Assembly (NCBI GenBank): GCA_004431415.1
Contig: QPMI01000575.1
Span: forward strand, 1-64,000
Length of the DNA stretch: 64,000 nt
Direction: 5' to 3'
From: Cyanophora paradoxa CCMP329
Taxonomy: Eukaryota > Plantae > Glaucophyta
Of this stretch, positions 18,734 to 39,470 are shown piece by piece. Positions within the stretch are counted from its first letter, which is position 1. Each line of letters starts with the position of its first letter. A program made the position numbers and the translations under genes. Below the pieces are notes generated by a model, which had not been told where the DNA came from, made no database searches, and worked only from the letters and a program-made list of their open reading frames with translations.

Positions 18734-18810
18734 TTGTTATTCTTACATTTAATCACTGTTATACTATGATATCATGATAACTAAAAATGATACATGATAA
18801 TTGCTTATCT

Positions 18811-19272: not shown

Positions 19273-19353
19273 TTGTAATCAGATGTTAAAAAGATTGTCA
19301 ATTTTTCATAAATCCTTCTCTGTAAAGTTTTGGTTAAACAATTGGAAAACTGC

Positions 19354-19672
19354 GGTTACACAACAGTTACACGGCGGTTACACTTGGTTACGCGGGGTTA
19401 CAGGTGAGGTTACGTAGTGATTTTTCGATAAACCACACCATTTTCAGTGTGGTAATCGATAAAAATAACCATTTAGATCCATTGAGGTTACGGTTACGCA
19501 ACTTTTTGAATTCTTTTTAAAAAAATGGCTGGGGGTCTTTTTATAGGTGAAGGTCTAAAACTTGCGTAACCGCGTAACTTGCGTAACCTCACGAGATTTA
19601 TGGTGTCTTTTTGGTATTTTTAAGGTTACGTAACGTTTTTACTTACGTAACCTGTGTAACCTTAACGTAACC
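19354..19672. repeat. GTTAC/GTAAC cassette R2 (copies 27912-28229, 45667-45983)
   Basis: Same core; GTTAC at 19355, 19366, 19377, 19387, 19397 and 19409. Confidence 0.9.
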
Positions 19673-19809
19673 TTATTATAACATCTTAAAAATGTCATCT
19701 GTTATCAAACGGTAGCGGGTGCGATACATAAGATCATGTCACGAGAAGCGATAGGATCCGCTTGTGAAGCGATGAAAAAATGAAGCAAATCTTAAAACTT
19801 AAACAATAA

Positions 19810-20310
19810 GTGAGATACAGCGGAATGTACAATATGAACGCGTCGGATATCCTGACCTACATTAAGAGTATTACCCATATTCCTGTTCTCATCGATGCTG
19901 ACCTATCTTTAAAGAAGGCAAACCCTAACACTATCTGTATTGTGCCGTATGATACTAAACATCGTGCGTATTTCGAAATGTTTCGTAAAAACTTGGGTTA
20001 TTCACCTAATACCCGTTTCGTCTGCTTTCTCACATTAGAGACTCACTATATTCTTGTTCCGGTTCTTACTGAAACATCGTGTAAATCGTTTATCTCTAAG
20101 ATCATCTCTAAATGGTCTATTAACCTACCTGCGCAATCTAATGAAACTAAGGAGTGCGTCATATGCCTTGATGACTGTAAAACTAAAATACAAATGTCTT
20201 GTTTGACATGTTTCGCCAAAATGTGCAACACATGCTTTTTACAGTTGAAGAGATCAGAGAGCTTTAAATGTCCGATCTGTCGTAATGACATAAAGACGCA
20301 ACGTGATTAA
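19810..20310 (+). CDS. RING-finger protein A, copy 1 (ATG start probably 19825 or 19834)
   Basis: CVIC-x11-CLTC-x4-CNTC-x11-CPICR, an all-Cys RING-like pattern. Confidence 0.8.
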   Translation: MRYSGMYNMNASDILTYIKSITHIPVLIDADLSLKKANPNTICIVPYDTKHRAYFEMFRKNLGYSPNTRFVCFLTLETHYILVPVLTETSCKSFISKIISKWSINLPAQSNETKECVICLDDCKTKIQMSCLTCFAKMCNTCFLQLKRSESFKCPICRNDIKTQRD

Positions 20311-20359
20311 TGTAAAAATTGATGGAAGATAAAAGTTTTTCTGAGTGTGCCGCTCTGAC

Positions 20360-20563
20360 ATGAAAGAGAAAATGAATAATGGACATTGGGTAACTTTGGC
20401 GACATTGCATAATAAGAAGATTGAGCTTATCCATCGGGAGGTTGATCTTAAACACACAAAAAGACAAGACCATGAAAGACTACAAAATGTTAAACAGTAT
20501 ATTGATGCAATCGATGTAATGATAGATGTAGTGAATACGATCGCTAAAATTAAGACCATGTGA
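20360..20563 (+). CDS. Small helical hypothetical protein, copy 1
   Basis: Short ORF with AAAATTGA at 20315-20322 upstream. Confidence 0.45.
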   Translation: MKEKMNNGHWVTLATLHNKKIELIHREVDLKHTKRQDHERLQNVKQYIDAIDVMIDVVNTIAKIKTM

Positions 20564-20593
20564 ATTTCATCGATAGCGCAAGCGCTATTTTTA

Positions 20594-20893
20594 TTACTTC
20601 TGTGTGCGGTTTTCAAGCTTCTGCCTCAATCTGAATGTTATAATGCTACCATCATGTCGTGCCTTCCCCCTTTGAATCGCTTTCGATATTTCCCCGGGTG
20701 TGTTCTCATCGAAATCAATGAATCGGGAAACCTTCTTTATAAACTGTCTCTGTAAATATCCGGGTAGTTGGTTGATATTACACCCGTCGTTTTTCTTAAC
20801 AAGGTTCTCGTAAATAATGCTACTGCGGTCATCCTGTGATAAATCGGGATTTTGAAGCTGTTCTATGAAAGCGTCGGGAATCCGTGAAGTCAT
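20594..20893 (-). CDS. 99-aa hypothetical protein, copy 1
   Basis: ATG-initiated ORF, AAAAATGA 32 bp upstream. Confidence 0.6.
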   Translation of the reverse strand: MTSRIPDAFIEQLQNPDLSQDDRSSIIYENLVKKNDGCNINQLPGYLQRQFIKKVSRFIDFDENTPGEISKAIQRGKARHDGSIITFRLRQKLENRTQK

Positions 20894-20938
20894 TGTAGGT
20901 TACACTGTCTATTTTGGCGGGTTGTCATTTTTTGCATC

Positions 20939-21247
20939 GGTTACATAGAGGTTACAAGAAGTTACAGAGGAGTTACGCAACAGGTTACGTAGATATTTTA
21001 CAACTGCAAGACGACTTTCAGTGTTATAATACAGGAGATTTAGTATTTTTAACACTGGCGGTTACGGTTACGCAACTTTTTAAATTCTTTTTAAAAAATG
21101 GCGGGGGGGTCTCTCTCAGATAAAATAGTGAAAACTTGCGTAACCGCGTAACTTGCGTAACCTCTACGACATTATGGTGTCTTTTCTCTGTTATTTTTGG
21201 TTACGTAACGTTTTTATCTACGTAACTTGTGTAACCTTAACGTAACC
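20939..21247. repeat. GTTAC/GTAAC cassette R3 (copies 29496-29804, 44097-44402)
   Basis: Same core; GTTAC at 20940, 20951, 20961, 20972 and 20984. Confidence 0.9.
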
Positions 21248-21273
21248 TTATTATTTAACATTATTCATCTTTA

Positions 21274-21810
21274 TTATCCATTTGCATATAACTTAGGTTC
21301 TAATGCTTCCATTCCGTCAAAAAATAGTTTAGTTCTACAAACTGAACACTTAGCATTCTCATGTGATTCAAGTGAAGAGAGGAAACAATTAGGACAAATA
21401 AGAGTATTGCAAACGATACAGCCTTTATTATTTATGTTAGTGTCAATGTTTTCAAGACAGATAGGACATGTTTCATTCGGACTCTCAAAGTTTTCCCTCG
21501 CGAATGACTTAATAATGATATCTACGAACCATTTGGTGTTCTCCTCATCAAGATATGGGACTAACATGTAACGGTGTTTATATGAGAATGCAAAACGAAT
21601 AGGTTGAAGGGCATGATATCCCGCCTTTTGCTTCCATGCATCAAATACCCCTTTATTCTTGCGGTTCTTTTGAATAAAGTATATAATCTGTCTTTCGTTG
21701 GCTTTCATTAAGAATTTCGTATAATTCTTATCATTCAGTTTATCTGATGCATTGACTATGGGATATGGCGAAATAGACTGTGAAAACGTCAATATATCGT
21801 TTAAATTCAT
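21274..21810 (-). CDS. RING-finger protein B, copy 1 (paralogue of A)
   Basis: CPIC...CIVC...CPNC...CSVCR; N-terminus MNLNDILTFSQSI resembles MNASDILTYIKSI. Confidence 0.8.
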   Translation of the reverse strand: MNLNDILTFSQSISPYPIVNASDKLNDKNYTKFLMKANERQIIYFIQKNRKNKGVFDAWKQKAGYHALQPIRFAFSYKHRYMLVPYLDEENTKWFVDIIIKSFARENFESPNETCPICLENIDTNINNKGCIVCNTLICPNCFLSSLESHENAKCSVCRTKLFFDGMEALEPKLYANG

Positions 21811-21844
21811 TTGGTTGTGCTACTATCTGTTACAGTTTCTTTAA

Positions 21845-22222
21845 TTAGCTTAGAGTTTTTTCAATGTCGAACACTCTTTTGAGAACGCCATCAATTCTTA
21901 CAGCATGTGATTTAATCCCGAAAATGCGCTTAATCACGATTCCGATGGCTGTTTTTGAAATCGGAAAGTCTATAAGCTCTTCTATTTCAGCATGGATTAC
22001 ATCGGAAGGTGTATAATCACCGTCATTACTTAACCTGTAACTATGCATTAAATACGCTTCCACATCAGACATCCCATGTTGATATTCGCCAATCCCATGT
22101 TGATATTCGCCAATCCCATGTTGATATTTGTCCATCCCATGTTGATATTTGCCCATCTCATGTTGATATTCGCCCATTTCCGTTTCATCCATAACAATTT
22201 CGATGTATTCCACGTCTTCCAT
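21845..22222 (-). CDS. 125-aa protein with 7-aa repeats and winged-helix-like C-terminus, copy 1
   Basis: Five 21-bp repeats ((G/D)(E/K)YQH(G/E)(M/I)); C-terminus resembles the C-terminus of the D5 protein. Confidence 0.6.
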   Translation of the reverse strand: MEDVEYIEIVMDETEMGEYQHEMGKYQHGMDKYQHGIGEYQHGIGEYQHGMSDVEAYLMHSYRLSNDGDYTPSDVIHAEIEELIDFPISKTAIGIVIKRIFGIKSHAVRIDGVLKRVFDIEKTLS

Positions 22223-22373
22223 GTTACACTTAACTGTTACATGTTAAAATTTTGTTACAAGTTTTACGGTTGATGTCCAAAAATTGACACTGTAAAACAC
22301 AGAAAGGTATTTAAGGGTTTGACTTAAAAGAGAAGTGAAAGGGAATAATTTCTTACCTTCCATTAGAGAATCA

Positions 22374-22814
22374 ATGGCGAATACTCGGAAATCAAACCAA
22401 GAGCTTATCGCTATTCAGAAAGGCGACCCGTTTGTAGAGATTGGAAAAAAGAAACCTGAGTTATCAATTGAAGAACAGGAAGAAAAGGCAAGGTTGAGAA
22501 GAGAGAAAGACAGGGAAAGAAAACGTGTAGCTTATCAGAAGAAGAAAGAAGAGAGACTCGCAAATGGCGAAAAAACAATACTGACAGCTGAGGAGCTGGA
22601 AAAGAGAGCCATATATTTACGTCGTCGATATGAAGAGGACGCGGAATATAGAAAAAAGAGAATTGAGAGTGCAAACAATTACCTGAAACAGAAAAGGCGT
22701 GAGAAGAAGACGGAGCCAAAACCCAAAGTGCAAACAGTGCCTAAGAAATCGGGAAGACCTCGAAAGTATCCCGACCCGATCACATCTTTATCGGAAAAAA
22801 GCGTAGCGAATTGA
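22374..22814 (+). CDS. Basic K/E/R-rich protein with AT-hook, copy 1
   Basis: KKSGRPRKY; charged helical region; AAAATTGA at 22280-22287. Confidence 0.65.
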   Translation: MANTRKSNQELIAIQKGDPFVEIGKKKPELSIEEQEEKARLRREKDRERKRVAYQKKKEERLANGEKTILTAEELEKRAIYLRRRYEEDAEYRKKRIESANNYLKQKRREKKTEPKPKVQTVPKKSGRPRKYPDPITSLSEKSVAN

Positions 22815-22828
22815 TTGATGGGAGCGCA

Positions 22829-22836
22829 AAAATTGA
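22829..22836 (+). promoter_or_regulatory. AAAATTGA (Mimivirus-type early promoter motif) upstream of primase-helicase; also 22280(+), 20315(+), 19298-19305(-), 36163(+)/37741-37748(-)
   Basis: Exact octamer, correctly oriented 26-233 bp upstream of starts. Confidence 0.6.
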
Positions 22837-22995
22837 CGCTTTACTTTCTCCTTTTTATAACCTAAGCCAAATCATTAAAGTGCCGTGGGCAACCGAAAAG
22901 CATTTAAGGACATCCCGAGAAGATAATTTAAACCTGGGAGTTTCTCACTTCCTCGGATTATTTTCTCTGAGAAATTTAAGAATCAATCGCGAAAA

Positions 22996-25876
22996 ATGAA
23001 TGCTAACACGAAAATCGCAACTCCCTGTGAGAGACTCGGTAACCTGTGCAAATTTACACCTGAGAAACATAATTGGGGTTCTTTCCTACATTGTCTCACT
23101 CCGAATACTGACAGCGAGACTGTCATAGAGTATTTCGACCATCAGATTACGGAAAGGATTAATGATGATTTGAAGAAAGGCAAAAAACCGACCTACGCCG
23201 AATGCATTCAGCCAAACGAAATAACACGTGTCTATCTGGATTATGACGGCTATGTGGATCTTAAACCGGATGTTGCCGATAACTACAAGGAAGCCGATGA
23301 AATCATTCGTGAAATGCGCAAGAGACTACACGAACTCACCGGTGCTACCATTGCTGTGTCCGTGCGTCATCGTCCTATCCATTTCGTTAAGGAAGACGTG
23401 ACCCAATTTAAGGTATCGGGGCATTTCGTCTTTACCGATCTGTGCTGTCGTCATGAAGACATCCCGAAATTCTTAAATGTAATCGGACTTACGCCAAAGG
23501 TGGATTATGACCCACTCGTTTATAAGACAAGGCAGGCGCTTGTTTGTCTGGGTAGTTGCAAGGGTAAATGGTTGGATTCCCAAAACAGACTAAACGCGAT
23601 GTTGATAAGGATGTAGTATTTACCAAATTCGTGGATTGTGAAACCATGTATGACAGCGACTTTTTCGCGCAATTCACGGATTGCCCCACTGTGCTTATCG
23701 ATGAATCAAACATGTATATGTTTGATGCTAACCTAACCCAAGATGAGAAAAACGAACGGTCGGCAAAGGCGGAAGTTGCAAAAGAGCAAATGAAGGAGGA
23801 AGGCAAGACTGAAACCAAGAAGGAGACGACCAAGAAGGAGACGACCAAGAAGGAGACCACAACAAAGAAGAAGGAGACGGCGACGACAAGCAAAAAAACA
23901 ACAAAGAAAACGGAGAGTGAAGAGCAGCCGGAGGAGTCTAATAACGTTTCATTTGAGAAACTGAGAGAAGTCGTGATGGGTCTTAGTGCTGAAAGATCGG
24001 ATACATACGAAGGTTGGCTTAATGTTGGTTTCGCAATCGCGAATGTTGGAGAGGAAAACAATATACCACCCACGAAACAGGAGGCGCTGTTTCACGAATA
24101 CTCCGAGAAAAGCCCTAAGTATGATTATGATGAATGCGCGAACAAATGGATGAGTATCCGCAAAGGCAAAAAATCCGGTTCCGAAAACAAAACTATAACT
24201 TTCGGCTCACTTGTGCATTATCTGAGAGAGGATAACCCGGACACGTATTATGGACTGTTTAAACCAAGCCGACAGTTTGCATTTATCGATGAGGAGGTGT
24301 GTATGGATGAGAATGACTATTCCGATGTTAGCGCCATGAATGATAAGATGGCTCAAATCAAATTAGAAATGGATAAGACGCTATTAAGTCAAGGTCTCCC
24401 ACTTCCTGTTAGCAAGATCTGTAAAGCATTAATTGGCTACAAAGTGCGGTTTTCACGTGGTCTGTGGTTGATCCTGAATGAGAAAACCGGATTTTGGAAG
24501 GTAGATAATAAGTATGATGGTGGTATGATAACTCTTATCGGTGAGGTTGTCGGGAAAGCATACTTAGACCGGGAGAACCATTGGGCTACCAAGGCGGCAA
24601 AGGCGGAGGAACAGAGCGATAAAAAGGAATTCGCAGTAAAGGCAGCCGCCTGTGCAAAAATTGCGCAAAAACTTAACTGTGGAGGTTACACGAAAGGACT
24701 TCTTACATATCTCTCTCATGACCTTTACGATGAGACATTTGCCGATAGGTTGGATTCAGTCGCGAATGTTGTTGGCTTTGACGATGGCGTTTATGATCTT
24801 AACACGTTTGAGTTCCGTAATGGTCGTTCTTCTGATATGATGACTAAGACAGTCTGTTATAACTATGATATTCCGGTGGATCCTGAGAAGGTCAAACGAC
24901 TCAATGACTTCTACATGGATATCACAGGTGACAATGTCGAACTTGCAAGATACATTAAGGCTGTTTATGCCAAGTCTCTAACGGGTAAAAATAACATGCA
25001 GTTTTTCTATATGTTTACGGGTATCGGCTCGAACGGAAAGAGCGTAATCGAAAATTTCATGCATAAGACATTTGGCGACTACTCACGAAATATGAGCATT
25101 GGGATTTTCACGAAGGAGGATAAAGGTAATGGAATGATTCCGGAACTTGCGAATAAGCAAGGTGTTAGGCTCGTCCATACAAACGAACCAAACACGGGTA
25201 GCAAACTGTTGGCGGGACAAATCAAGAATTTCACAGGTTGTGATGAGATCACAGTAAGAACCCTTTTCAAAGAACCAATTTCATTTGCTCCGATGTTTGT
25301 TATCGTCATCCTCTGTAATAATAACCTCGAATTTGATCAGCCCGACAATGCAGTAGCGCGCCGCTTCCGTTCTGTTCCATTTCAGCAGGTCTATGCCGTC
25401 GAACCTAAGCCCGGACAGAAGAAAGCGGATAAAGACCTTACCGGGTTGTTGAATCCCGATAATGACGTAAATGGTGAATGGCGCAGGGCAAACATGGAGA
25501 TTCTCATAGACATGCTTAAAAACCATGATGTTAATCATATAATCGACCATCCGCCCAATGCATCCTCGAACATTCCGCTAATTATCTCGCGGACAGCGAC
25601 CGTATCGGCACATTCCTAAGGGACAACTACGCTTTGGCGGAGGATAACACGAAATACATAATATGTGACGATCTGTTTAAGGATTGCTCAAATACGATGA
25701 GAGATGTTGATAGAAGAGCAGCGATAACAGGACGAGCTGTAAGCAATAAGGTGATGGAGGTGTTTAAGATCGGCTCGACTGTAAAAAAGGTTGGTGGAAA
25801 ATCGAAGCGTGTTTATCTCGGTCTCACAAAGAACCGCGCTAACGATTTTGAAGACGATGACGAAGATGTGGAATAA
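22996..25876 (+). CDS. AEP primase-PriCT-2-D5/SF3 helicase, copy 1 (two 1-bp frameshifts)
   Basis: YLDYDG, KVSGHFVF (AEP motifs); YEGWLNVGFAI..SEKSPKYD..ECANKW (PriCT-2); GFDDGVYDL (D5_N); Walker A GIGSNGKS; AVARRF. Confidence 0.9.
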
Positions 25877-27368
25877 AACTTATTGGAAAATATACTATTG
25901 ATATCTTTTTTATGATCATGAACCGTAAGACTCGGTTCTTAATAGAAGGTTACTTTAAGGTTTCTCGGAGTTACTCGGAGTTACTCAGAGAGGTTACGTA
26001 GCGGTTCCGTTAATTTGTTACCATTTTCAGTATTGATATACCGAATTTCTCTTTATTTCACAGCTGTGAGTTACGGTTACGCAACTTTTTGAATTCTTTC
26101 TGAAAATTTGGAGGGGGTCTTTTATAGGTGAAGGTCTAAAACTTGCGTAACCGCGTAACTTGCGTAACCTCTGCGTAACTTGCGTATCGATAATCTGTAT
26201 ATATTTCCGAATATTATAACTGAATCTCAATTAGATCTTGCCTCTGGTTAAAACTCCGCATTTTACTATGTGTGATTGGTCTGTTTGTTAATTGATTTAA
26301 TCGATATTATATTCATGTACTTTCTCGATTAAATTTAATTAAATTTAATTCATTTAATCGGAAATATATCGCTAAACTCGATTAAGATCCATAAATGATT
26401 CATTTGTTAAATAAAACAAATCGATCTCTTATTGAATCCAATCGTAATTATACATGAAACTTATATGTTTTTATCATGTTTTAATGATTCTAAGGGGGAC
26501 CCTTAGGATTTTTGAAATAATTGGGTGTGACACATACCATATTCAGTAAGGACCTCTTATATTGTGAAAATCTCAGTGTTAGTTGTGTAGTTGATTCAAA
26601 AAATGCATTTTATACTCTGATTCATTGTTATTTCCTGTGAAATTTGAGTCAACTCAACCCACTTAGTCAACCCTTGTATTGAATTCGTAACAAAATCCAT
26701 ATACTATTACTACTTTTACGATTAATATGAGTCAACCTTGAGTCCACTTTAATAATAGGGGGAATCTTGGGGAGATGTCATTGTAGAAAGCTATTGTAGT
26801 AAAATGATATATTATGTCCTTTTGTTACAATAGCTGATCAATGTTATTGTTAGAAAACAAAGGAATCCTTTCACTGGGATTTTGTTTTTTACGGTTATAA
26901 AATTGTATCTGTGGTGCATTTTGTCGAATTGCTTGTATTAAACTGTTTTGCTCTTCTATGTATTCGATCGTACTTTTATGTGAAGGTTACATTAATGTTT
27001 AAAAAGTTACATGGAGTTACGTGATGGGTTACGTAGATATTTTACGATTACTAAGACCATTCTCAGTGTTAAAATGGTTGATTTATCGCTATTTTGTCAC
27101 TGTGAGTTACGGTTACGCAACTTTTTGAATTCTTTCTGAAAATTTGGCTGGGGTCTTTTTATAGGTGAAGGTCTAAAACTTGCGTAACCACGTAACTTGC
27201 GTAACCTCTACGACATTATGGTGTCATTTCTCTATACTTTTAGGTTACGTAACGTTTTTACTTACGTAACTTGTGTAACCTTAACGTAACCTTGTTATTC
27301 TTACATTTAATCACTGTTATACTATGATATCATGATAACTAAAAATGATACATGATAATTGCTTATCT

Positions 27369-27830
27369 TTAACCACGTAGAGATGTTAGATGATCACAAT
27401 CGAACATCTTAAAGATCTTGCATATCTCATTTTCAGGATCGGTGACATACCATAGACGGTGTCGCTTATCAAATAAAGCGCCTTGGTTTTTAATGTATTT
27501 ACGTAATGATGCCTGGGTAAATATACGTTTAGCTTCTATTTCAGGTAGTTTAGTTTTTATGTCACCAACGAAATATAGACGTTTCGGGCGATTATGATAA
27601 TCAGGATCGATAACGATGGGGTTTATTGTAGGAAAGTGCTTTAAGATTCTGTGAAACTTGTAGCAAACAAACCAATACCCTGTGTCATCATCGAATTTAA
27701 CGCCACAATCTTTGATATCTAATAGTGATCTGAAACAAGTATTACGGAGGTTGCTTATATCCAACATGTAAGCGCCGTAGTAATGGTGCGGCTCGTTTGT
27801 GGTGTTTCCGAAATAAATGAATTGATCCAT
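27369..27830 (-). CDS. DUF5710-like protein, copy 2
   Basis: Identical translation to 18811-19272. Confidence 0.65.
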   Translation of the reverse strand: MDQFIYFGNTTNEPHHYYGAYMLDISNLRNTCFRSLLDIKDCGVKFDDDTGYWFVCYKFHRILKHFPTINPIVIDPDYHNRPKRLYFVGDIKTKLPEIEAKRIFTQASLRKYIKNQGALFDKRHRLWYVTDPENEICKIFKMFDCDHLTSLRG

Positions 27831-28366
27831 TTGTAATCAGATGTTAAAAAGATTGTCAATTTTTCATAAATCCTTCTCTGTAAAGTTTTGGTTAAACAAT
27901 TGGAAAACTGCGGTTACACAACAGTTACACGGCGGTTACACTTGGTTACGCGGGGTTACAGGTGAGGTTACGTAGTGATTTTTCGATAAACCACACCATT
28001 TTCAGTGTGGTAATCGATAAAAATAACCATTTAGATCCATTGAGGTTACGGTTACGCAACTTTTTGAATTCTCTTTAAAAAATGGCTGGGGGTCTTTTTA
28101 TAGGTGAAGGTCTAAAACTTGCGTAACCGCGTAACTTGCGTAACCTCACGAGATTTATGGTGTCTTTTTGGTATTTTTAAGGTTACGTAACGTTTTTACT
28201 TACGTAACCTGTGTAACCTTAACGTAACCTTATTATAACATCTTAAAAATGTCATCTGTTATCAAACGGTAGCGGGTGCGATACATAAGATCATGTCACG
28301 AGAAGCGATAGGATCCGCTTGTGAAGCGATGAAAAAATGAAGCAAATCTTAAAACTTAAACAATAA

Positions 28367-28867
28367 GTGAGATACAGCGGAATGTACAATATGAACGCGT
28401 CGGATATCCTGACCTACATTAAGAGTATTACCCATATTCCTGTTCTCATCGATGCTGACCTATCTTTAAAGAAGGCAAACCCTAACACTATCTGTATTGT
28501 GCCGTATGATACTAAACATCGTGCGTATTTCGAAATGTTTCGTAAAAACTTGGGTTATTCACCTAATACCCGTTTCGTCTGCTTTCTCACATTAGAGACT
28601 CACTATATTCTTGTTCCGGTTCTTACTGAAACATCGTGTAAATCGTTTATCTCTAAGATCATCTCTAAATGGTCTATTAACCTACCTGCGCAATCTAATG
28701 AAACTAAGGAGTGCGTCATATGCCTTGATGACTGTAAAACTAAAATACAAATGTCTTGTTTGACATGTTTCGCCAAAATGTGCAACACATGCTTTTTACA
28801 GTTGAAGAGATCAGAGAGCTTTAAATGTCCGATCTGTCGTAATGACATAAAGACGCAACGTGATTAA
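28367..28867 (+). CDS. RING-finger protein A, copy 2
   Basis: Identical translation to 19810-20310. Confidence 0.8.
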   Translation: MRYSGMYNMNASDILTYIKSITHIPVLIDADLSLKKANPNTICIVPYDTKHRAYFEMFRKNLGYSPNTRFVCFLTLETHYILVPVLTETSCKSFISKIISKWSINLPAQSNETKECVICLDDCKTKIQMSCLTCFAKMCNTCFLQLKRSESFKCPICRNDIKTQRD

Positions 28868-29150
28868 TGTAAAAATTGATGGAAGATAAAAGTTTTTCTG
28901 AGTGTGCCGCTCTGACATGAAAGAGAAAATGAATAATGGACATTGGGTAACTTTGGCGACATTGCATAATAAGAAGATTGAGCTTATCCATCGGGAGGTT
29001 GATCTTAAACACACAAAAAGACAAGACCATGAAAGACTACAAAATGTTAAACAGTATATTGATGCAATCGATGTAATGATAGATGTAGTGAATACGATCG
29101 CTAAAATTAAGACCATGTGAATTTCATCGATAGCGCAAGCGCTATTTTTA

Positions 29151-29830: not shown

Positions 29831-30366
29831 TTATCCATTTGCATATAACTTAGGTTCTAATGCTTCCATTCCGTCAAAAAATAGTTTAGTTCTACAAACT
29901 GAACACTTAGCATTCTCATGTGATTCAAGTGAAGAGAGGAAACAATTAGGACAAATAAGAGTATTGCAAACGATACAGCCTTTATTATTTATGTTAGTGT
30001 CAATGTTTTCAAGACAGATAGGACATGTTTCATTCGGACTCTCAAAGTTTTCCCTCGCGAATGACTTAATAATGATATCTACGAACCATTTGGTGTTCTC
30101 CTCATCAAGATATGGGACTAACATGTAACGGTGTTTATATGAGAATGCAAAACGAATAGGTTGAAGGGCATGATATCCCGCCTTTTGCTTCCATGCATCA
30201 AATACCCCTTTATTCTTGCGGTTCTTTGAATAAAGTATATAATCTGTCTTTCGTTGGCTTTCATTAAGAATTTCGTATAATTCTTATCATTCAGTTTATC
30301 TGATGCATTGACTATGGGATATGGCGAAATAGACTGTGAAAACGTCAATATATCGTTTAAATTCAT
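29831..30366 (-). CDS. RING-finger protein B, copy 2 (1-bp frameshift in homopolymer)
   Basis: Split ORFs 30118-30366 and 29831-30124 match 21274-21810. Confidence 0.75.
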
Positions 30367-30400
30367 TTGGTTGTGCTACTATCTGTTACAGTTTCTTTAA

Positions 30401-30778
30401 TTAGCTTAGAGTTTTTTCAATGTCGAACACTCTTTTGAGAACGCCATCAATTCTTACAGCATGTGATTTAATCCCGAAAATGCGCTTAATCACGATTCCG
30501 ATGGCTGTTTTTGAAATCGGAAAGTCTATAAGCTCTTCTATTTCAGCATGGATTACATCGGAAGGTGTATAATCACCGTCATTACTTAACCTGTAACTAT
30601 GCATTAAATACGCTTCCACATCAGACATCCCATGTTGATATTCGCCAATCCCATGTTGATATTCGCCAATCCCATGTTGATATTTGTCCATCCCATGTTG
30701 ATATTTGCCCATCTCATGTTGATATTCGCCCATTTCCGTTTCATCCATAACAATTTCGATGTATTCCACGTCTTCCAT
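30401..30778 (-). CDS. Repeat/winged-helix-like protein, copy 2
   Basis: Identical translation to 21845-22222. Confidence 0.6.
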   Translation of the reverse strand: MEDVEYIEIVMDETEMGEYQHEMGKYQHGMDKYQHGIGEYQHGIGEYQHGMSDVEAYLMHSYRLSNDGDYTPSDVIHAEIEELIDFPISKTAIGIVIKRIFGIKSHAVRIDGVLKRVFDIEKTLS

Positions 30779-30928
30779 GTTACACTTAACTGTTACATGT
30801 TAAATTTTGTTACAAGTTTTACGGTTGATGTCCAAAAATTGACACTGTAAAACACAGAAAGGTATTTAAGGGTTTGACTTAAAAGAGAAGTGAAAGGGAA
30901 TAATTTCTTACCTTCCATTAGAGAATCA

Positions 30929-31369
30929 ATGGCGAATACTCGGAAATCAAACCAAGAGCTTATCGCTATTCAGAAAGGCGACCCGTTTGTAGAGATTGGA
31001 AAAAAGAAACCTGAGTTATCAATTGAAGAACAGGAAGAAAAGGCAAGGTTGAGAAGAGAGAAAGACAGGGAAAGAAAACGTGTAGCTTATCAGAAGAAGA
31101 AAGAAGAGAGACTCGCAAATGGCGAAAAAACAATACTGACAGCTGAGGAGCTGGAAAAGAGAGCCATATATTTACGTCGTCGATATGAAGAGGACGCGGA
31201 ATATAGAAAAAAGAGAATTGAGAGTGCAAACAATTACCTGAAACAGAAAAGGCGTGAGAAGAAGACGGAGCCAAAACCCAAAGTGCAAACAGTGCCTAAG
31301 AAATCGGGAAGACCTCGAAAGTATCCCGACCCGATCACATCTTTATCGGAAAAAAGCGTAGCGAATTGA
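30929..31369 (+). CDS. AT-hook basic protein, copy 2
   Basis: Identical translation to 22374-22814. Confidence 0.65.
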   Translation: MANTRKSNQELIAIQKGDPFVEIGKKKPELSIEEQEEKARLRREKDRERKRVAYQKKKEERLANGEKTILTAEELEKRAIYLRRRYEEDAEYRKKRIESANNYLKQKRREKKTEPKPKVQTVPKKSGRPRKYPDPITSLSEKSVAN

Positions 31370-31550
31370 TTGATGGGAGCGCAAAAATTGACGCTTTACT
31401 TTCTCCTTTTTATAACCTAAGCCAAATCATTAAAGTGCCGTGGGCAACCGAAAAGCATTTAAGGACATCCCGAGAAGATAATTTAAACCTGGGAGTTTCT
31501 CACTTCCTCGGATTATTTTCTCTGAGAAATTTAAGAATCAATCGCGAAAA

Positions 31551-34432
31551 ATGAATGCTAACACGAAAATCGCAACTCCCTGTGAGAGACTCGGTAACCT
31601 GTGCAAATTTACACCTGAGAAACATAATTGGGGTTCTTTCCTACATTGTCTCACTCCGAATACTGACAGCGAGACTGTCATAGAGTATTTCGACCATCAG
31701 ATTACGGAAAGGATTAATGATGATTTGAAGAAAGGCAAAAAACCGACCTACGCCGAATGCATTCAGCCAAACGAAATAACACGTGTCTATCTGGATTATG
31801 ACGGCTATGTGGATCTTAAACCGGATGTTGCCGATAACTACAAGGAAGCCGATGAAATCATTCGTGAAATGCGCAAGAGACTACACGAACTCACCGGTGC
31901 TACCATTGCTGTGTCCGTGCGTCATCGTCCTATCCATTTCGTTAAGGAAGACGTGACCCAATTTAAGGTATCGGGGCATTTCGTCTTTACCGATCTGTGC
32001 TGTCGTCATGAAGACATCCCGAAATTCTTAAATGTAATCGGACTTACGCCAAAGGTGGATTATGACCCACTCGTTTATAAGACAAGGCAGGCGCTTGTTT
32101 GTCTGGGTAGTTGCAAGGGTAAATGGTTGGATTCCCAAAACAAGACTAAACGCGATGTTGATAAGGATGTAGTATTTACCAAATTCGTGGATTGTGAAAC
32201 CATGTATGACAGCGACTTTTTCGCGCAATTCACGGATTGCCCCACTGTGCTTATCGATGAATCAAACATGTATATGTTTGATGCTAACCTAACCCAAGAT
32301 GAGAAAAACGAACGGTCGGCAAAGGCGGAAGTTGCAAAAGAGCAAATGAAGGAGGAAGGCAAGACTGAAACCAAGAAGGAGACGACCAAGAAGGAGACGA
32401 CCAAGAAGGAGACCACAACAAAGAAGAAGGAGACGGCGACGACAAGCAAAAAAACAACAAAGAAAACGGAGAGTGAAGAGCAGCCGGAGGAGTCTAATAA
32501 CGTTTCATTTGAGAAACTGAGAGAAGTCGTGATGGGTCTTAGTGCTGAAAGATCGGATACATACGAAGGTTGGCTTAATGTTGGTTTCGCAATCGCGAAT
32601 GTTGGAGAGGAAAACAATATACCACCCACGAAACAGGAGGCGCTGTTTCACGAATACTCCGAGAAAAGCCCTAAGTATGATTATGATGAATGCGCGAACA
32701 AATGGATGAGTATCCGCAAAGGCAAAAAATCCGGTTCCGAAAACAAAACTATAACTTTCGGCTCACTTGTGCATTATCTGAGAGAGGATAACCCGGACAC
32801 GTATTATGGACTGTTTAAACCAAGCCGACAGTTTGCATTTATCGATGAGGAGGTGTGTATGGATGAGAATGACTATTCCGATGTTAGCGCCATGAATGAT
32901 AAGATGGCTCAAATCAAATTAGAAATGGATAAGACGCTATTAAGTCAAGGTCTCCCACTTCCTGTTAGCAAGATCTGTAAAGCATTAATTGGCTACAAAG
33001 TGCGGTTTTCACGTGGTCTGTGGTTGATCCTGAATGAGAAAACCGGATTTTGGAAGGTAGATAATAAGTATGATGGTGGTATGATAACTCTTATCGGTGA
33101 GGTTGTCGGGAAAGCATACTTAGACCGGGAGAACCATTGGGCTACCAAGGCGGCAAAGGCGGAGGAACAGAGCGATAAAAAGGAATTCGCAGTAAAGGCA
33201 GCCGCCTGTGCAAAAATTGCGCAAAAACTTAACTGTGGAGGTTACACGAAAGGACTTCTTACATATCTCTCTCATGACCTTTACGATGAGACATTTGCCG
33301 ATAGGTTGGATTCAGTCGCGAATGTTGTTGGCTTTGACGATGGCGTTTATGATCTTAACACGTTTGAGTTCCGTAATGGTCGTTCTTCTGATATGATGAC
33401 TAAGACAGTCTGTTATAACTATGATATTCCGGTGGATCCTGAGAAGGTCAAACGACTCAATGACTTCTACATGGATATCACAGGTGACAATGTCGAACTT
33501 GCAAGATACATTAAGGCTGTTTATGCCAAGTCTCTAACGGGTAAAAATAACATGCAGTTTTCTATATGTTTACGGGTATCGGCTCGAACGGAAAGAGCGT
33601 AATCGAAAATTTCATGCATAAGACATTTGGCGACTACTCACGAAATATGAGCATTGGGATTTTCACGAAGGAGGATAAAGGTAATGGAATGATTCCGGAA
33701 CTTGCGAATAAGCAAGGTGTTAGGCTCGTCCATACAAACGAACCAAACACGGGTAGCAAACTGTTGGCGGGACAAATCAAGAATTTCACAGGTTGTGATG
33801 AGATCACAGTAAGAACCCTTTTCAAAGAACCAATTTCATTTGCTCCGATGTTTGTTATCGTCATCCTCTGTAATAATAACCTCGAATTTGATCAGCCCGA
33901 CAATGCAGTAGCGCGCCGCTTCCGTTCTGTTCCATTTCAGCAGGTCTATGCCGTCGAACCTAAGCCCGGACAGAAGAAAGCGGATAAAGACCTTACCGGG
34001 TTGTTGAATCCCGATAATGACGTAAATGGTGAATGGCGCAGGGCAAACATGGAGATTCTCATAGACATGCTTAAAAACCATGATGTTAATCATATAATCG
34101 ACCATCCGCCCCAATGCATCCTCGAACATTCCGCTAATTATCTCGCGGACAGCGACCGTATCGGCACATTCCTAAGGGACAACTACGCTTTGGCGGAGGA
34201 TAACACGAAATACATAATATGTGACGATCTGTTTAAGGATTGCTCAAATACGATGAGAGATGTTGATAGAAGAGCAGCGATAACAGGACGAGCTGTAAGC
34301 AATAAGGTGATGGAGGTGTTTAAGATCGGCTCGACTGTAAAAAAGGTTGGTGGAAAATCGAAGCGTGTTTATCTCGGTCTCACAAAGAACCGCGCTAACG
34401 ATTTTGAAGACGATGACGAAGATGTGGAATAA
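31551..34432 (+). CDS. AEP primase-PriCT-2-D5/SF3 helicase, copy 2 (one 1-bp frameshift; consensus ~960 aa)
   Basis: ORFs 31551-33602 and 33566-34432 join if the T4 run at ~33558 is T5, as in the other two copies. Confidence 0.9.
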
Positions 34433-34503
34433 AACTTATTGGAAAATATACTATTGATATCTTTTTTATGATCATGAACCGTAAGACTCGGTTCTTAATA
34501 GAA

Positions 34504-34812
34504 GGTTACTTTAAGGTTTCTCGGAGTTACTCGGAGTTACTCAGAGAGGTTACGTAGCGGTTCCGTTAATTTGTTACCATTTTCAGTATTGATATACCGA
34601 ATTTCTCTTTATTTCACAGCTGTGAGTTACGGTTACGCAACTTTTTGAATTCTTTCTGAAAATTTGGAGGGGGGTCTTTTTATAGGTGAAGGTCTAAAAC
34701 TTGCGTAACCGCGTAACTTGCGTAACCTCTACGACATTATGGTGTCATTTCTCTATTATTTTGGGTTACGTAACGTTTCTCCTTGCGTAACTTGTGTAAC
34801 CTCAACGTAACC
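34504..34812. repeat. GTTAC/GTAAC cassette R4 (truncated copy 25948-26172; inverted copy 39094-39400)
   Basis: Same core, directly downstream of the primase-helicase gene. Confidence 0.9.
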
Positions 34813-34957
34813 TTCTTATTAATACATAGATATCACATGTTCTCTCTTGTTATCATTTGTTGGCGTTATAGAATGTAGGTAAGACATCGGAAAAAGTGAA
34901 AAAATGACATCTTAACTACATATAAGGTTGTTGTGATATATTCATTTGATAATTAAG

Positions 34958-35182
34958 ATGGCTTGCAAACTCCCCGAACGCATCGACATGGGTGAATATC
35001 TCATTAAAGACCTTCCGGAAGAGTTAAAACCACTTGCACGCAAGATGGACTTAAAAGGAATACGAGAATACTATGAGAGAACCTACCCTGATTTATACAA
35101 GAAAAAACAGCGTGTCGAACCATCGGAATGCATCACTGTTAAGGTTCCAAAAGGCGTAAAGGTCAGAATTCAGAGAATCTAA
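34958..35182 (+). CDS. 74-aa hypothetical protein (mirror copy 38725-38949, minus strand)
   Basis: ATG ORF with AAAAATGA at 34900-34907. Confidence 0.6.
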   Translation: MACKLPERIDMGEYLIKDLPEELKPLARKMDLKGIREYYERTYPDLYKKKQRVEPSECITVKVPKGVKVRIQRI

Positions 35183-35246
35183 CACGCTGAATAATATAAA
35201 AAACAATTGTAACGCATGATTAATAGAAACAAAAAAAACATTTAAA

Positions 35247-35564
35247 ATGAAGAGCTTCTACGCTATCAGAGAGCATGACGCCCTTCTTTTTTATACGCGA
35301 TTCTTTGAGAATCCGGAAAACAGATGTATGGAGAAATTCGAAGACTTCTGTAAAGAATTTACCCAAATCGCTTATGGTAACACTGAAATACGAAGACCAT
35401 CAAGAAAGCAAAAATTAAAAGACCTTTTTCAAAACATGATCTTGTCATTTGATGCTGATAATAGAAATACTAAATATCATAATACAGTCACAGGATCTGT
35501 TAGGGAACGTCTCCAAGAGAAATTAGCAAAACGAAGAATATCACAATGTGTGACCTATTGTTAA
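35247..35564 (+). CDS. 105-aa hypothetical protein (mirror copy 38343-38660, minus strand)
   Basis: ATG ORF, protein-like composition. Confidence 0.6.
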   Translation: MKSFYAIREHDALLFYTRFFENPENRCMEKFEDFCKEFTQIAYGNTEIRRPSRKQKLKDLFQNMILSFDADNRNTKYHNTVTGSVRERLQEKLAKRRISQCVTYC

Positions 35565-35681
35565 ACGCACTTTAAAAAGGGTCTTTTTTGCAAACCTCCA
35601 CAGGATCGTGTAGGTTTATGTTTCGATCTACGCAAACAGCTACAATGTCCTGTATAGGTAGTTTTGAAAATTAAAGCGTTT

Positions 35682-36191
35682 TCACTCTTTCCTGTTCCGA
35701 TAACATTCGCATTCTGAAAGAAATGACCTTAATATTAACTTCCTTATTGCGTCGCGACCTTCCCAATTGTTGTGATCTTTACCCAAAAGTTTGACAAAGT
35801 CTAAGATATGGATAAACTCGGAACGCGATATATCATTAGGTAAATCAAACGGCTCCGTTTCTATTTCCCAATAATTCACTTTGTAGAAATATAACAAACC
35901 GTCAGATCCCTTAGCATAATGTATATCGGGATTCTCTGTAAAATATCCGATTTGCTCAATTTTCCATATTATGTCGCTATTATCTAATTCATTCATAAAC
36001 ATTATCAATCTGTCGATATTGATTTTAATTAAGGAAGTATTAACTGAAAACACGGGCTTTCCGTTGTACATATACGGCGTCTCCATCATTGCAATCAATC
36101 TTAGCACGAGCGTTAGGATGTCTCCCATGCCGCTTAAATGGTTTTCATTTTTTGCCCGCTCAAAAATTGACGCCCCACAAGAACAAACCAT
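35682..36191 (-). CDS. Hypothetical protein, probable start MGDIL at ~36128 (mirror copy 37720-38226, frameshifted)
   Basis: 169-codon ORF with globular composition; AAAAATGA just upstream of the MGDIL start. Confidence 0.55.
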   Translation of the reverse strand: MVCSCGASIFERAKNENHLSGMGDILTLVLRLIAMMETPYMYNGKPVFSVNTSLIKINIDRLIMFMNELDNSDIIWKIEQIGYFTENPDIHYAKGSDGLLYFYKVNYWEIETEPFDLPNDISRSEFIHILDFVKLLGKDHNNWEGRDAIRKLILRSFLSECECYRNRKE

Positions 36192-36362
36192 AACCTGTAA
36201 TGCAACGCTCTGTTATTTATGGTCGAATCTAATGATGCTACATATGTATTTGTCGAAAAAGAGAATTAACACACTCTAAACCTCTTTCGAAATGCTATAA
36301 TCCCCATTGTTTACTTTTCACTTTGTGAAAAATCCCTTTTGTATGTGGAAATATCTTTTTTT

Positions 36363-37508
36363 TCAGAGAGTCTTTAAGAATTGGTCAATACATCCTTTTA
36401 TGTTTTTTTCAGTGTATGGTATTCTTAAAAGCTTTAAATTATGAGTCTCACAGTATCTGTTTTTAATTCCATCTCTAATCTGTGTTATTTTAAATCCTTC
36501 TTCTCCCCCAAACCACTTAACAGGTTCAAAATGTTGTTGACCGTCAAACTCTATAACAATGTTCAGGCTTGGTATGAAAAAGTCAAACCTCAATTTATTT
36601 TTATAAAAGCAATCAGAAAACATATACTCTGTCTTGTGAGCAATGTCCAAATCTTCTAAATACCTTTTTATTTCCCGTTCTCCATGTGATGATTTACAGT
36701 GGGGACAGCCGCTTTTTTGTGAAAGATGATAATTTGGAACCTGAGAGAACTCACTATTACATTTTCGGCAAGTTAGGTTAACTTTTGTTTTCGAATCAAT
36801 ATAATTGACCTTTGAGTAATCATAATCATCTCCATGCACCTCTCTTGCTTTTTCTACAAACTGTCGCGTTGTTAACCTGAAAGTCTCGGAACGTTTTCTA
36901 TGACTACAATGTTTACAACCCTGTCCGCTTAAATGGTTTGCCGGTTCCATTAAAAAGAATTGCTCACAAGTCAGACACTGTATCTTAACTTTTACTTTTG
37001 AATTCACATAGTCTGCATGCTGATAATCATATTTTCCATTATGGGCTTCTGTTGCCTTTGCAACAAATGTGTCTTTTGTCAATCTCTGCTTTTGTTTCAT
37101 TGTTTTAATGCCTTTTTGGGGACATCCACTCCCCATTATATGACTGTTTGGCGTTTGAAAATAAAAATGATTGCATTCAAAGCAATAGATTTTAACCTTT
37201 GTTTGACTGTTAATATAGTCGACCTCATCATATCCATACTGTTCACCGTGCTTTGCTTTCGCTCTTTCTATAAACTCTTCTTTGGTATGTCTATTTTTAT
37301 CTTTAATTGTTTGGATTTTACACAATTTACACCCGCAACCTGATAAATGGTCATGGGGTGTTTGAGTAAACACCGTTTTGCAAGAAAGGCAAACTATCGA
37401 AACCCTTGTTGAGTTATCAATGTATTCTACATTGGCGTAGTTATATTTGTCTCCATGCTTGGCTTTTGCCTTTTCTACAAAACTCTCGGTTGTATCTTTT
37501 ACAGGCAT
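36363..37508 (-). CDS. 381-aa endonuclease: four DUF723-like Zn-ribbon repeats plus C-terminal PD-(D/E)XK/Vsr-like nuclease domain
   Basis: Four repeats of F..KA...HG..Y.Y....Y..S..KV.I.CxxC...F...P..H..G.GC; C-terminal LRFDFFIPSLNIVIEFDGQQHF..RDGIKNRYC..LLRIPY. Confidence 0.85.
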   Translation of the reverse strand: MPVKDTTESFVEKAKAKHGDKYNYANVEYIDNSTRVSIVCLSCKTVFTQTPHDHLSGCGCKLCKIQTIKDKNRHTKEEFIERAKAKHGEQYGYDEVDYINSQTKVKIYCFECNHFYFQTPNSHIMGSGCPQKGIKTMKQKQRLTKDTFVAKATEAHNGKYDYQHADYVNSKVKVKIQCLTCEQFFLMEPANHLSGQGCKHCSHRKRSETFRLTTRQFVEKAREVHGDDYDYSKVNYIDSKTKVNLTCRKCNSEFSQVPNYHLSQKSGCPHCKSSHGEREIKRYLEDLDIAHKTEYMFSDCFYKNKLRFDFFIPSLNIVIEFDGQQHFEPVKWFGGEEGFKITQIRDGIKNRYCETHNLKLLRIPYTEKNIKGCIDQFLKTL

Positions 37509-39470
37509 CTTATTAAAACTATAAACTGTTATACTTTTAAATAAATTTGTTCCGCGATATTTCCACATACAAAAGGGATTTTTCACAAAGTGAAAAGTAA
37601 ACAATGGGGATTATAGCATTTCGAAAGAGGTTTAGAGTGTGTTAATTCTCTTTTTCGACAAATACATATGTAGCATCATTAGATTCGACCATAAATAACA
37701 GAGCGTTGCATTACAGGTTATGGTTTGTTCTTGTGGGGCGTCAATTTTTGAGCGGGCAAAAAATGAAAACCATTTAAGCGGCATGGGAGACATCCTAACG
37801 CTCGTGCTAAGATTGATTGCAATGATGGAGACGCCGTATATGTACAACGGAAAGCCCGTGTTTTCAGTTAATACTTCCTTAATTAAAATCAATATCGACA
37901 GATTGATAATGTTTATGAATGAATTAGATAATAGCGACATAATATGGAAATTGAGCAAATCGGATATTTTACAGAGAATCCCGATATACATTATGCTAAG
38001 GATCTGACGGTTTGTTATATTTCTACAAAGTGAATTATTGGGAAATAGAAACGGAGCCGTTTGATTTACCTAATGATATATCGCGTTCCGAGTTTATCCA
38101 TATCTTAGACTTTGTCAAACTTTTGGGTAAAGATCACAACAATTGGAAGGTCGCGACGCAATAAGGAAGTTAATATTAAGGTCATTTCTTTCAGAATGCG
38201 AATGTTATCGGAACAGGAAAGAGTGAAAACGCTTTAATTTTCAAAACTACCTATACAGGACATTGTAGCTGTTTGCGTAGATCGAAACATAAACCTACAC
38301 GATCCTGTGGAGGTTTGCAAAAAGACCCTTTTTAAAGTGCGTTTAACAATAGGTCACACATTGTGATATTCTTCGTTTTGCTAATTTCTCTTGGAGACGT
38401 TCCCTAACAGATCCTGTGACTGTATTATGATATTTAGTATTTCTATTATCAGCATCAAATGACAAGATCATGTTTTGAAAAAGGTCTTTTAATTTTTGCT
38501 TTCTTGATGGTCTTCGTATTTCAGTGTTACCATAAGCGATTTGGGTAAATTCTTTACAGAAGTCTTCGAATTTCTCCATACATCTGTTTTCCGGATTCTC
38601 AAAGAATCGCGTATAAAAAAGAAGGGCGTCATGCTCTCTGATAGCGTAGAAGCTCTTCATTTTAAATGTTTTTTTTGTTTCTATTAATCATGCGTTACAA
38701 TTGTTTTTTATATTATTCAGCGTGTTAGATTCTCTGAATTCTGACCTTTACGCCTTTTGGAACCTTAACAGTGATGCATTCCGATGGTTCGACACGCTGT
38801 TTTTTCTTGTATAAATCAGGGTAGGTTCTCTCATAGTATTCTCGTATTCCTTTTAAGTCCATCTTGCGTGCAAGTGGTTTTAACTCTTCCGGAAGGTCTT
38901 TAATGAGATATTCACCCATGTCGATGCGTTCGGGGAGTTTGCAAGCCATCTTAATTATCAAATGAATATATCACAACAACCTTATATGTAGTTAAGATGT
39001 CATTTTTTCACTTTTTCCGATGTCTTACCTACATTCTATAACGCCAACAAATGATAACAAGAGAGAACATGTGATATCTATGTATTAATAGAAGGTTACG
39101 TTGAGGTTACACAAGTTACGCAAGGAGAAACGTTACGTAACCCAAATAATAGAGAAATGACACCATAATGTCGTAGAGGTTACGCAAGTTACGCGGTTAC
39201 GCAAGTTTTAGACCTTCACCTATAAAAAGACCCCCTCCAAATTTTCAGAAAGAATTCAAAAAGTTGCGTAACCGTAACTCACAGCTGTGAAATAAAGAGA
39301 AATTCGGTATATCAATACTGAAAATGGTAACAAATTAACGGAACCGCTACGTAACCTCTCTGAGTAACTCCGAGTAACTCCGAGAAACCTTAAAGTAACC
39401 TTCTATTAAGAACCGAGTCTTACGGTTCATGATCATAAAAAGATATCAATAGTATATTTTCCAATAAGTT

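Follow-up and report, generated by a model that had tools for sequence, protein, structure and literature searches.

Results

Architecture of the element

The DNA analysed here comprises the first 64,000 nucleotides of contig QPMI01000575.1 from the assembly of the glaucophyte Cyanophora paradoxa CCMP329 (GCA_004431415.1), referred to as the window, with positions counted from its first letter. The window holds a 30-kb, AT-rich element in which nine of twelve genes are preceded by the word AAAAAWTGA, a signal resembling the early promoters of giant viruses. As assembled, the element consists of a 21.9-kb palindrome (two 10.35-kb arms round a 1.2-kb centre) and one additional tandem arm. It is bounded by a target-site duplication (TSD) and lies within a retroelement with identical long terminal repeats (LTRs).

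17431..47902, no strand: whole element, 30,472 bp, ~37% GC, ends 5'-ACAC...GTGT-3'
17425..17430, plus: left copy of the TSD, TGCTCA, 6 bp
47903..47908, plus: right copy of the TSD, TGCTCA, 6 bp
17431..17715, no strand: left terminal palindrome, a 28-bp perfect stem with an imperfectly paired AT-rich loop; mirror at 47618-47902
17625..26172, plus: 8.55-kb unit, with a head-to-tail copy at 26185-34730 (99.87%; as assembled)
26185..36355, plus: left arm, inverted copy of 37556-47708 (99.7%; differences nearly all single-base indels)
36356..37555, no strand: unique centre, 1200 bp, exactly on the axis of the otherwise perfect palindrome
18420-18750, ~19350-19680, 20940-21262 and 34490-34820, no strand: four intergenic repeats of ~330 bp, GGTTAC/GTAACC words head to head round a G-run
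16486..51339, minus: interrupted LTR retroelement, identical 475-bp LTRs at 16486-16960 and 50865-51339, 4-bp TSD ATAC

When folded as DNA, the two terminal palindromes have z-scores of -9.6 and -9.1, which were reached by 0 of 200 shuffles. The four ~330-bp repeats share a mean column identity of 79% and stand between gene blocks, and we predict that they serve as replication origins and recombination sites. Because the LTRs of the split retroelement are identical, the insertion is likely to be recent. The retroelement itself has a gag-like open reading frame (ORF) at 48688-49950 with a zinc-knuckle-like motif recognised by eye and no Pfam match, and no pol was seen in its ~3.4 kb of internal DNA.

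Two junctions within the element have unusual structures. At the tandem joint (26140-26186), a truncated repeat array meets the interior of the terminal loop, with a short filler built of repeat words between the two, an arrangement that resembles a template switch. At the junctions of centre and arm (36355/36356 and 37555/37556), the stop codon of the nuclease gene is followed by seven A's right at the boundary, possibly the trace of a cDNA-like or homing insertion at a hairpin axis.

Gene content

The twelve genes encode a DUF5710-like protein, two RING paralogues, an AT-hook-like protein, a D5-type primase-helicase, a zinc-ribbon endonuclease and six proteins of no known family.

18811..19272, minus: DUF5710-like ORF, 153 aa (Pfam E 4.8e-5, below cut-off)
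19825..20310, plus: RING A, 161 aa, paralogue of RING B (31%, E 4e-18)
20360..20563, plus: 67-aa ORF
20594..20893, minus: 99-aa ORF
21274..21810, minus: RING B, 178 aa
21845..22222, minus: 125-aa ORF with 7-aa repeats
22374..22814, plus: AT-hook-like ORF, 146 aa, basic, GRPRK; no Pfam or PHROG match
22996..25876, plus: D5-type primase-helicase; Pfam PriCT_2, D5_N and DUF5906, SF3 ATPase, N-terminal primase-like region
34958..35182, plus: 74-aa ORF
35247..35564, plus: 105-aa ORF
35682..36128, minus: MGDIL ORF, 148 aa; no Pfam, PHROG or Atlas match
36363..37508, minus: zinc-ribbon-repeat endonuclease, homing-endonuclease-like, 381 aa (phrog_559 E 4e-90, DUF4379)

Homologues of the primase-helicase share 23-37% local identity with it, and most carry PF23162 at the N-terminus. 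What we take to be its primase and Walker motifs appear by eye to be intact. The gene is frameshifted at different places in each of its three copies, and these frameshifts are likely assembly errors since the right-arm breaks are absent from the short-read contigs of three sequencing runs. For the C-terminus of the 125-aa ORF, the ESM Atlas proposes DUF3874/Pox_D5 at 0.91-0.94, which our own D5 C-terminal profile did not confirm (E 1.7); a winged-helix-like fold is possible there and is offered as a lead. Single-sequence AlphaFold models of this ORF and of the MGDIL ORF (pLDDT 65 and 41) were too poor for a structure search.

Among the ORFs of the element, Pfam and PHROG gave no family match to a major or minor capsid protein, a packaging ATPase, polB, or an integrase of the rve or tyrosine-recombinase type. 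Nor is there space for any of these, since the primase-helicase and the nuclease are the only products longer than 180 aa. The presence of a TSD without an integrase gene points to mobilisation in trans. The element nevertheless has features by which polinton-like viruses (PLVs) as well as virophages are recognised, namely terminal inverted repeats (TIRs), a TSD in the 4-6 bp range, low GC relative to the host, a length of 15-30 kb and a replicase with PriCT2-D5N-SF3 domains.

A recurrent word upstream of nine genes

The first-pass annotation of this DNA had reported the 8-mer AAAATTGA ahead of five genes and a one-mismatch form, AAAAATGA, ahead of four others. Every one of these sites is present: AAAATTGA at 19298-19305(-), 20315(+), 22280(+), 22829(+) and 37741-37748(-), and AAAAATGA at 19776(+), 20925-20932(-), 34900(+) and 37759(+), with a mirror copy of the last at 36145(-). 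All nine have an extra A on the 5' side and so read AAAAATTGA five times and AAAAAATGA four times. Since all AAAATTGA sites are AAAAATTGA and all mismatch sites are AAAAAATGA, the signal is the 9-mer AAAAAWTGA. In six of the nine it is followed by a C, giving AAAAAWTGA(C).

19298..19306, minus: AAAAATTGA(C), 34 nt ahead of the DUF5710-like ORF
19775..19783, plus: AAAAAATGA, 50 nt ahead of RING A
20314..20322, plus: AAAAATTGA, 46 nt ahead of the 67-aa ORF
20925..20933, minus: AAAAAATGA(C), 40 nt ahead of the 99-aa ORF
22279..22287, plus: AAAAATTGA(C), 95 nt ahead of the AT-hook-like ORF
22828..22836, plus: AAAAATTGA(C), 168 nt ahead of the primase-helicase, with no ATG between
34899..34907, plus: AAAAAATGA(C), 59 nt ahead of the 74-aa ORF
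37741..37749, minus: AAAAATTGA(C), facing the nuclease, with 241 nt and seven ATGs before the MPVK start; back to back with the MGDIL site
37758..37766, plus: AAAAAATGA, 25 nt ahead of the MGDIL ORF; mirror at 36145-36153(-)

Each of the three arms retains the six sites of the repeated unit intact. The site facing the nuclease is real, but its assignment to that gene is the weakest of the nine: the ORF's first ATG is 180 nt away and the likelier MPVK start 241 nt, and seven ATGs intervene, versus none for the other eight genes. A sixth AAAATTGA 8-mer, absent from the earlier annotation, occurs at 35956(-) inside the coding sequence of the left-arm MGDIL copy and has four A's only. The right-arm copy lacks it; five of six 8-mers are thus upstream of genes and the 9-mer count is unchanged. 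RING B has a one-mismatch site at -89. By eye, no fixed second promoter box was seen around the nine sites, and short TGTAAC words were noted ahead of the three genes that lack the motif as well.

The word tests were made on a non-redundant set of ~11.5 kb (with the right-arm copy of the MGDIL ORF), because repeats within three near-identical arms are not independent. The first-pass annotation had warned that some hits could arise by chance in AT-rich DNA, and for the 8-mer the warning was sound, its count alone being marginal (5 observed vs 1.25-2.43 expected, P 0.01-0.11). AAAAAWTGA clearly exceeds a composition-matched background, the comparison which that annotation had proposed, with 9 observed vs 1.4-1.6 expected, a count reached in 0 of 300 simulations at each Markov order from 1 to 4. 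The positional bias to which it had given most weight is also borne out: all nine sites are non-coding, in sense orientation and at most 250 nt from a start (P 7.6e-9, or 7.9e-6 against non-coding positions only), and six are within 60 nt (P 1.8e-5). Distances are 25-59 nt for these six, 95 nt for one and more than 150 nt for two (168 and 241); giant-virus early promoters (AAAA(A)TTGA or WWWWWTGW) lie no more than ~150 nt ahead of the ATG, most often near -30 to -70. A de novo ranking placed AAAAAWTGA first among 35,855 words, with occurrences in 9 of the 12 upstream regions. The predicted leaders of eight genes contain no ATG in 365 nt (P 5e-4), a result that for in-frame ATGs holds partly by construction. 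A poxvirus-type T5NT terminator lies 24-37 nt past the stop in four of the twelve genes, where ~9% per gene is expected, and coding strands are not depleted of it (2 vs 3.9, P 0.23).

Because the gene list was partly curated, the motif was recounted with one mechanical ORF caller, both here and in two sets of viral loci. The first set comprises 78 loci carrying D5 homologues (D5 loci), 37 of them labelled giant-virus metagenome-assembled genomes (GVMAGs) and the rest unclassified; the second comprises 80 control loci with relatives of the nuclease, which are equally AT-rich (33% GC) and include one labelled GVMAG. Of the mechanical ORFs, the motif precedes 7 of 14 in the element; the D5 loci give 281 of 1236 and the controls 39 of 1468. 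Elsewhere in the window the counts are 0 of 8 in an AT-rich viral remnant (1-4600) and 0 of 15 in host DNA. In the D5 loci, AAAAATTGA and AAAAAATGA stand upstream of 134 and 128 of 1183 ORFs, respectively, which compares with 5:4 in the element, and the median distance to the start is 47-48 nt. The form first noted as a mismatch is as common there as the other.

Short-read contigs and family copies

Between 83 and 88% of sampled words from 29900-37550 are present in 20 of 24 sequencing runs (19 studies of one organism). These runs may all come from a single strain, with one of them perhaps the source itself. In each of the three DNA runs examined, a single 1260-nt contig covers the centre with 30 arm letters at each end. 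This is one short of the 31-letter bridging rule, yet such a contig would be expected where both of its ends run into one and the same inverted repeat. An RNA-labelled contig departs from the window at 47902 into other DNA, the same element end at another site. One RNA-labelled run has no cover over the genes, which does not bear on whether they are expressed. Summed contig depth over the terminal kilobase (46948-47915) is 6,000-26,000 versus 45-88 over the centre, which suggests that there are many elements or miniature derivatives with related ends, although depth is not a copy number. The depth of the retroelement relative to the nuclease centre varies by run (~3.1, 1.0 and 1.7).

The contigs also reveal a family of copies with variant arms and deletions that run from repeat to repeat. 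Such joints connect 39235 with 44426 in two of three DNA runs and 39335 with 45764 in all three, and one deletion of this kind removes the primase gene; gene blocks may therefore behave as cassettes. Of 371 differences among copies, 40 were considered; these left 23 coding ones after 14 non-coding differences and 3 near a RING B frameshift were excluded. Fourteen of the 23 are synonymous (P 3e-4), and because of this excess the genes look selected.

Relatives and surroundings

Relatives of the nuclease are encoded in 88 viral stretches. The primase alone retrieved no viral contig; in viral contigs, RING A gave 21 pattern matches, none of which was confirmed, and RING B gave four candidates, none significant. 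A search pattern for the terminal stem (one match in viral contigs, none in metagenomes) and one for the repeats (five matches) were discarded as chance hits, since none of the six loci aligned any further.

A second, decayed and AT-rich element end occupies positions 1-4580 of the window. It contains pieces of a C1q fibre-like ORF (Pfam C1q, E 1e-8), a remnant of AdoMetDC (E 1.5e-10) and a remnant of the same nuclease family, and AAAAAWTGA is absent from it. Its perfect short terminal hairpin, with a GAA loop, is homologous to the end of the main element, with which it shares a 57-nt subterminal block, and sequence similar to its subterminal DNA appears at loose contig ends in the short-read data. 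The shared hairpin end and subterminal block tie the main element to a family in which some members have virion-type genes. Between the two viral insertions sits a 170-bp satellite (5215-11370, ~36 copies, 90% matches). Host genes, at 66-84% GC, include a frameshifted glutamine-rich low-complexity gene at 57716-62849(-) and a POP5/Rpp14 exon at 63338-63499(+) (Pfam E 1.8e-7). A single EukProt protein (P0071) is matched by a host exon.

Discussion

A giant-virus early-promoter type of signal

A set of twelve genes, palindromic arms, hairpin termini, a 6-bp target duplication, an insertion within a retroelement with identical LTRs and a recurrent word positioned upstream of genes are what the window contains. 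The AAAAAWTGA(C) sites form a non-random signal ahead of genes, of the type that giant viruses use for early promoters. We consider it likely, with a probability of about 0.6, that the element is a non-autonomous derivative of a PLV or virophage and that a co-infecting giant virus transcribes it with its early machinery. Since the element has no RNA polymerase and three out of four of its genes carry the signal, a helper's early machinery would be its simplest reader, as has been argued for PgVV-14T and for the helicase of the pacmanvirus transpoviron. The dependence on a giant virus proposed by the first-pass annotation thus stands as the most likely reading, although the motif by itself is no proof of a viral polymerase, because its C-extended form resembles the chlorovirus word AATGACA.

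Two further proposals of that annotation need adjustment. It had taken the motif as the early promoter of the Mimiviridae; the giant-virus early type holds, but not the restriction to that family, given that the motif is also reported for PgV, ChlorV/CroV (as AAAAATTGA), pacmanvirus, African swine fever virus (ASFV) and the iridovirus IIV-6. It had also set early activation apart from the late activation of virophages. Early activation has precedents in PgVV-14T and the transpoviron of pacmanvirus, and it is to be expected in an element without structural genes.

How might such an element have arisen? The palindrome is best explained as an early arm that was copied back to rebuild a second end; this would take to an extreme the regeneration of TIRs described for truncated endogenous mavirus-like elements (EMALEs). 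A parent virus would have lost its structural and integrase half, and copying of the early/replication arm as an inverted repeat would have restored two ends and a length, 21.9 kb, typical of PLVs and virophages. The rve-type integrase of an autonomous relative may then have inserted the element recently, in trans. Upon infection by a giant virus, the early transcription factor and RNA polymerase of the helper would read the nine sites to yield the primase-helicase, the RING proteins and the small DNA-binding proteins. The primase-helicase could start replication at the GTAAC repeat arrays or at the hairpin ends together with the DNA polymerase of the helper, and packaging, if any, would need the capsids of a sibling virus or of the helper.

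Several observations weigh against this proposal. The sequence databases searched yielded neither an autonomous partner nor a helper virus nor a close relative, although no genome-wide search of the host was made. The best matches to the primase among 1.84 billion representatives are 29-31% identical, in a FastTree of 355 sequences (midpoint root, weak) it sits on a long branch apart from the main clade of D5 homologues, and none of the other genes of the element occurs in the 238 loci retrieved through the primase alignment or the nuclease. The exact motif is absent before RING B, the 125-aa repeat ORF and the 105-aa ORF. Three sites lie far from their starts (95, 168 and 241 nt); in the D5 loci, 16-17% of sites are more than 90 nt and 7% more than 150 nt away. 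The flanks are not A/T-rich as in giant-virus early promoters: a C follows the 9-mer in 6 of 9 sites here versus 18 of 296 in D5 loci, where T mostly follows TGA, and versus 6 of 31 in D5 loci of at least 35% GC, and two sites contain the exact chlorovirus early word AATGACA. Lastly, contig depth over the AT-hook gene and the centre is near equal in three runs (103/88, 39/48 and 72/64). The assembled arms predict 2-3 times more depth over the AT-hook gene unless the centre itself is multi-copy, and depth is a poor measure of copy number; the third arm, and perhaps the arm length, is therefore supported by the assembly only.

Alternative readers and origins

The strongest competing explanation, which we nonetheless regard as unlikely, is that host RNA polymerase II reads the motif in the nucleus, as in chloroviruses. 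The element would then derive from an autonomous nuclear PLV and need a sibling PLV only, with no giant virus, and GTTACGTAAC-type arrays would act as enhancers for host factors. TTRCGYAA words are concentrated in the four ~330-bp repeats, and we presume a likeness to bZIP sites. The extended core AAAAAWTGAC, with AATGACA (the early motif of PBCV-1) in two sites, would fit this explanation, as would the flanking bases, which differ from those of the D5 loci. Phycodnaviruses are said to borrow host RNA polymerase (PMC5294985), and TsV-N1 is a lytic PLV without a reported helper. Speaking for a giant-virus reader instead, the five-A core in its two forms matches the D5 loci in form, ratio and distance; the chlorovirus hotspot is at -60 to -90, whereas most sites here are at -25 to -59 (PMC5294985); and the motif precedes none of the 15 host ORFs of the window.

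It is less likely again that the promoters are real but vestigial, the element being a dead or transposon-like fragment of a helper-dependent virus that is copied by the integrase of a relative and by recombination and is now never activated. The lack of capsid and integrase, the repeat-to-repeat deletions in family copies (one losing the primase gene) and the fragmented state of the neighbouring relative at 1-4580 are all compatible with decay. A dead fragment would sit poorly with arms and LTRs that are essentially identical, frameshifts that are copy-specific and in the right arm absent from short-read contigs, the synonymous excess among family copies and the six repeated-unit sites that are intact in all three arms.

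That genes and promoters alike belong to a stretch of an endogenous giant-virus genome, and not to a satellite, is very improbable: although D5-type primase-helicases, RING genes and the motif are all found in giant viruses, the element has defined ends, a 6-bp TSD and hairpins like those of the fibre-bearing remnant of a small virus, its D5-type gene is the sole giant-virus core gene (no polB, major capsid protein, RNA polymerase or VLTF3 was found among its ORFs), and its primase falls outside the main D5 clade, on the long branch of the weakly resolved tree mentioned above.

Comparison with known satellites

Promoter sharing with giant viruses is already known. PgVV-14T (Gezel-14T; 10.1101/2022.07.28.501842) is a PLV that lives as a virophage of Phaeocystis globosa virus (PgV), and in it the early motif of the helper, with a AAAATTGA core, stands ahead of replication, recombinase and endonuclease genes. 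Like the Cyanophora element it has TIRs, and its low-GC relatives are integrated in a GC-rich host. It differs in having capsid genes, an ATPase, TVpol and a tyrosine recombinase, none of which is present here, in the share of motif matches that precede starts (5 of 10 vs 9 of 9) and in lacking 10-kb arms.

Transpovirons, especially the pacmanvirus lostcity pltv (PMC11788076; PMC11464507; PMC5499653), are likewise linear, TIR-bounded and capsid-less and encode a helicase and small nucleic-acid-binding proteins, and in lostcity pltv AAAATTGA precedes the helicase gene. They are ~7-kb episomes carried in virions, mostly with late promoters, whereas our element has early-type sites only and is integrated in a host chromosome with a TSD. 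Its size (an 11.5-kb monomer and a 21.9-kb palindrome) also sets it apart, as does its SF3 D5-type primase-helicase, in place of the SF1 (Tlr1-like) helicase fused to a dead protein-primed polB (pPolB) in mimivirus transpovirons.

Virophages and PLVs of Halocafeteria seosinensis (10.64898/2026.07.28.741278) have palindromes within TIRs beside TSDs, replicases other than pPolB (D5 primase-helicase) and RING and HNH accessory genes, and some fragments without structural genes there also keep a TIR and TSD. Their giant-virus-like promoter is the CroV late motif, and the main-text portions available describe no element made of two whole inverted arms. In truncated EMALEs of Cafeteria burkhardae (PMC8547959), TIRs were regenerated after truncation and promoter motifs were taken as a sign of the helper; those TIRs measure 0.2-2.3 kb rather than 10 kb, and mavirus-type elements use a late TCTA motif. 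The repeat-bracketed AEP-SF3 modules of polisuviruses, which are proposed to be mobile (10.64898/2026.10.13.758929), combine an AEP-SF3 replicase without capsid or integrase, a nearby endonuclease gene and tandem arrangements; the Cyanophora element is multi-gene, with its own termini and TSD, and that source contains no analysis of promoters, the word having 0 occurrences in it. AEP-S3H is common in PLVs. Finally, the chlorovirus early motif AATGACA/ATGACAA (PMC5294985) shares the ATGAC core and the association with early genes, but its consensus has no five-A run, its hotspot is more distant and host polymerase is said to read it.

The element belongs to neither group, since it lacks the capsid and integrase of a PLV and the size and SF1 helicase of a transpoviron; functionally it would resemble a transpoviron, or else the early half of a PLV of the virophage type. 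New is the combination of early-type sites ahead of 9 of 12 genes with inverted arms of 10 kb, a probably recent chromosomal insertion and the lack of both capsid and integrase. We found no published account of an element that lacks a capsid, is palindromic throughout and has early giant-virus promoters, although the search was not made by host name and did not cover supplementary catalogues of endogenous viral elements (e.g. PMC10120064 and two 2026 preprints), which could list it.

A more speculative possibility, which we put forward tentatively, is that the element is an active double parasite akin to a defective-interfering genome, in which the early half of a small DNA virus has been folded into a 22-kb packageable palindrome that is stored in the chromosome, activated wholly by a giant virus, replicated by its own enzyme from the repeat arrays, and integrated and packaged by a sibling virus. 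If so, it would correspond to a transpoviron that resides in the host chromosome and uses another replicase, and through its two RING proteins the element could act as an early defence, inducible, against the giant virus. In Bigelowiella, the integrated "transpovirons" were reclassified as capsid-bearing PLVs, so an active capsid-less chromosomal satellite would fill a gap. Surveys of endogenous small DNA viruses in protists start from capsid or pPolB genes, and an element with neither is therefore invisible to them. A promoter signature like the one described here offers an alternative route to finding these satellites and predicting their helpers, and makes it possible to test which virus wakes the element and whether an early-only satellite lowers the yield of its helper as virophages with late promoters do.

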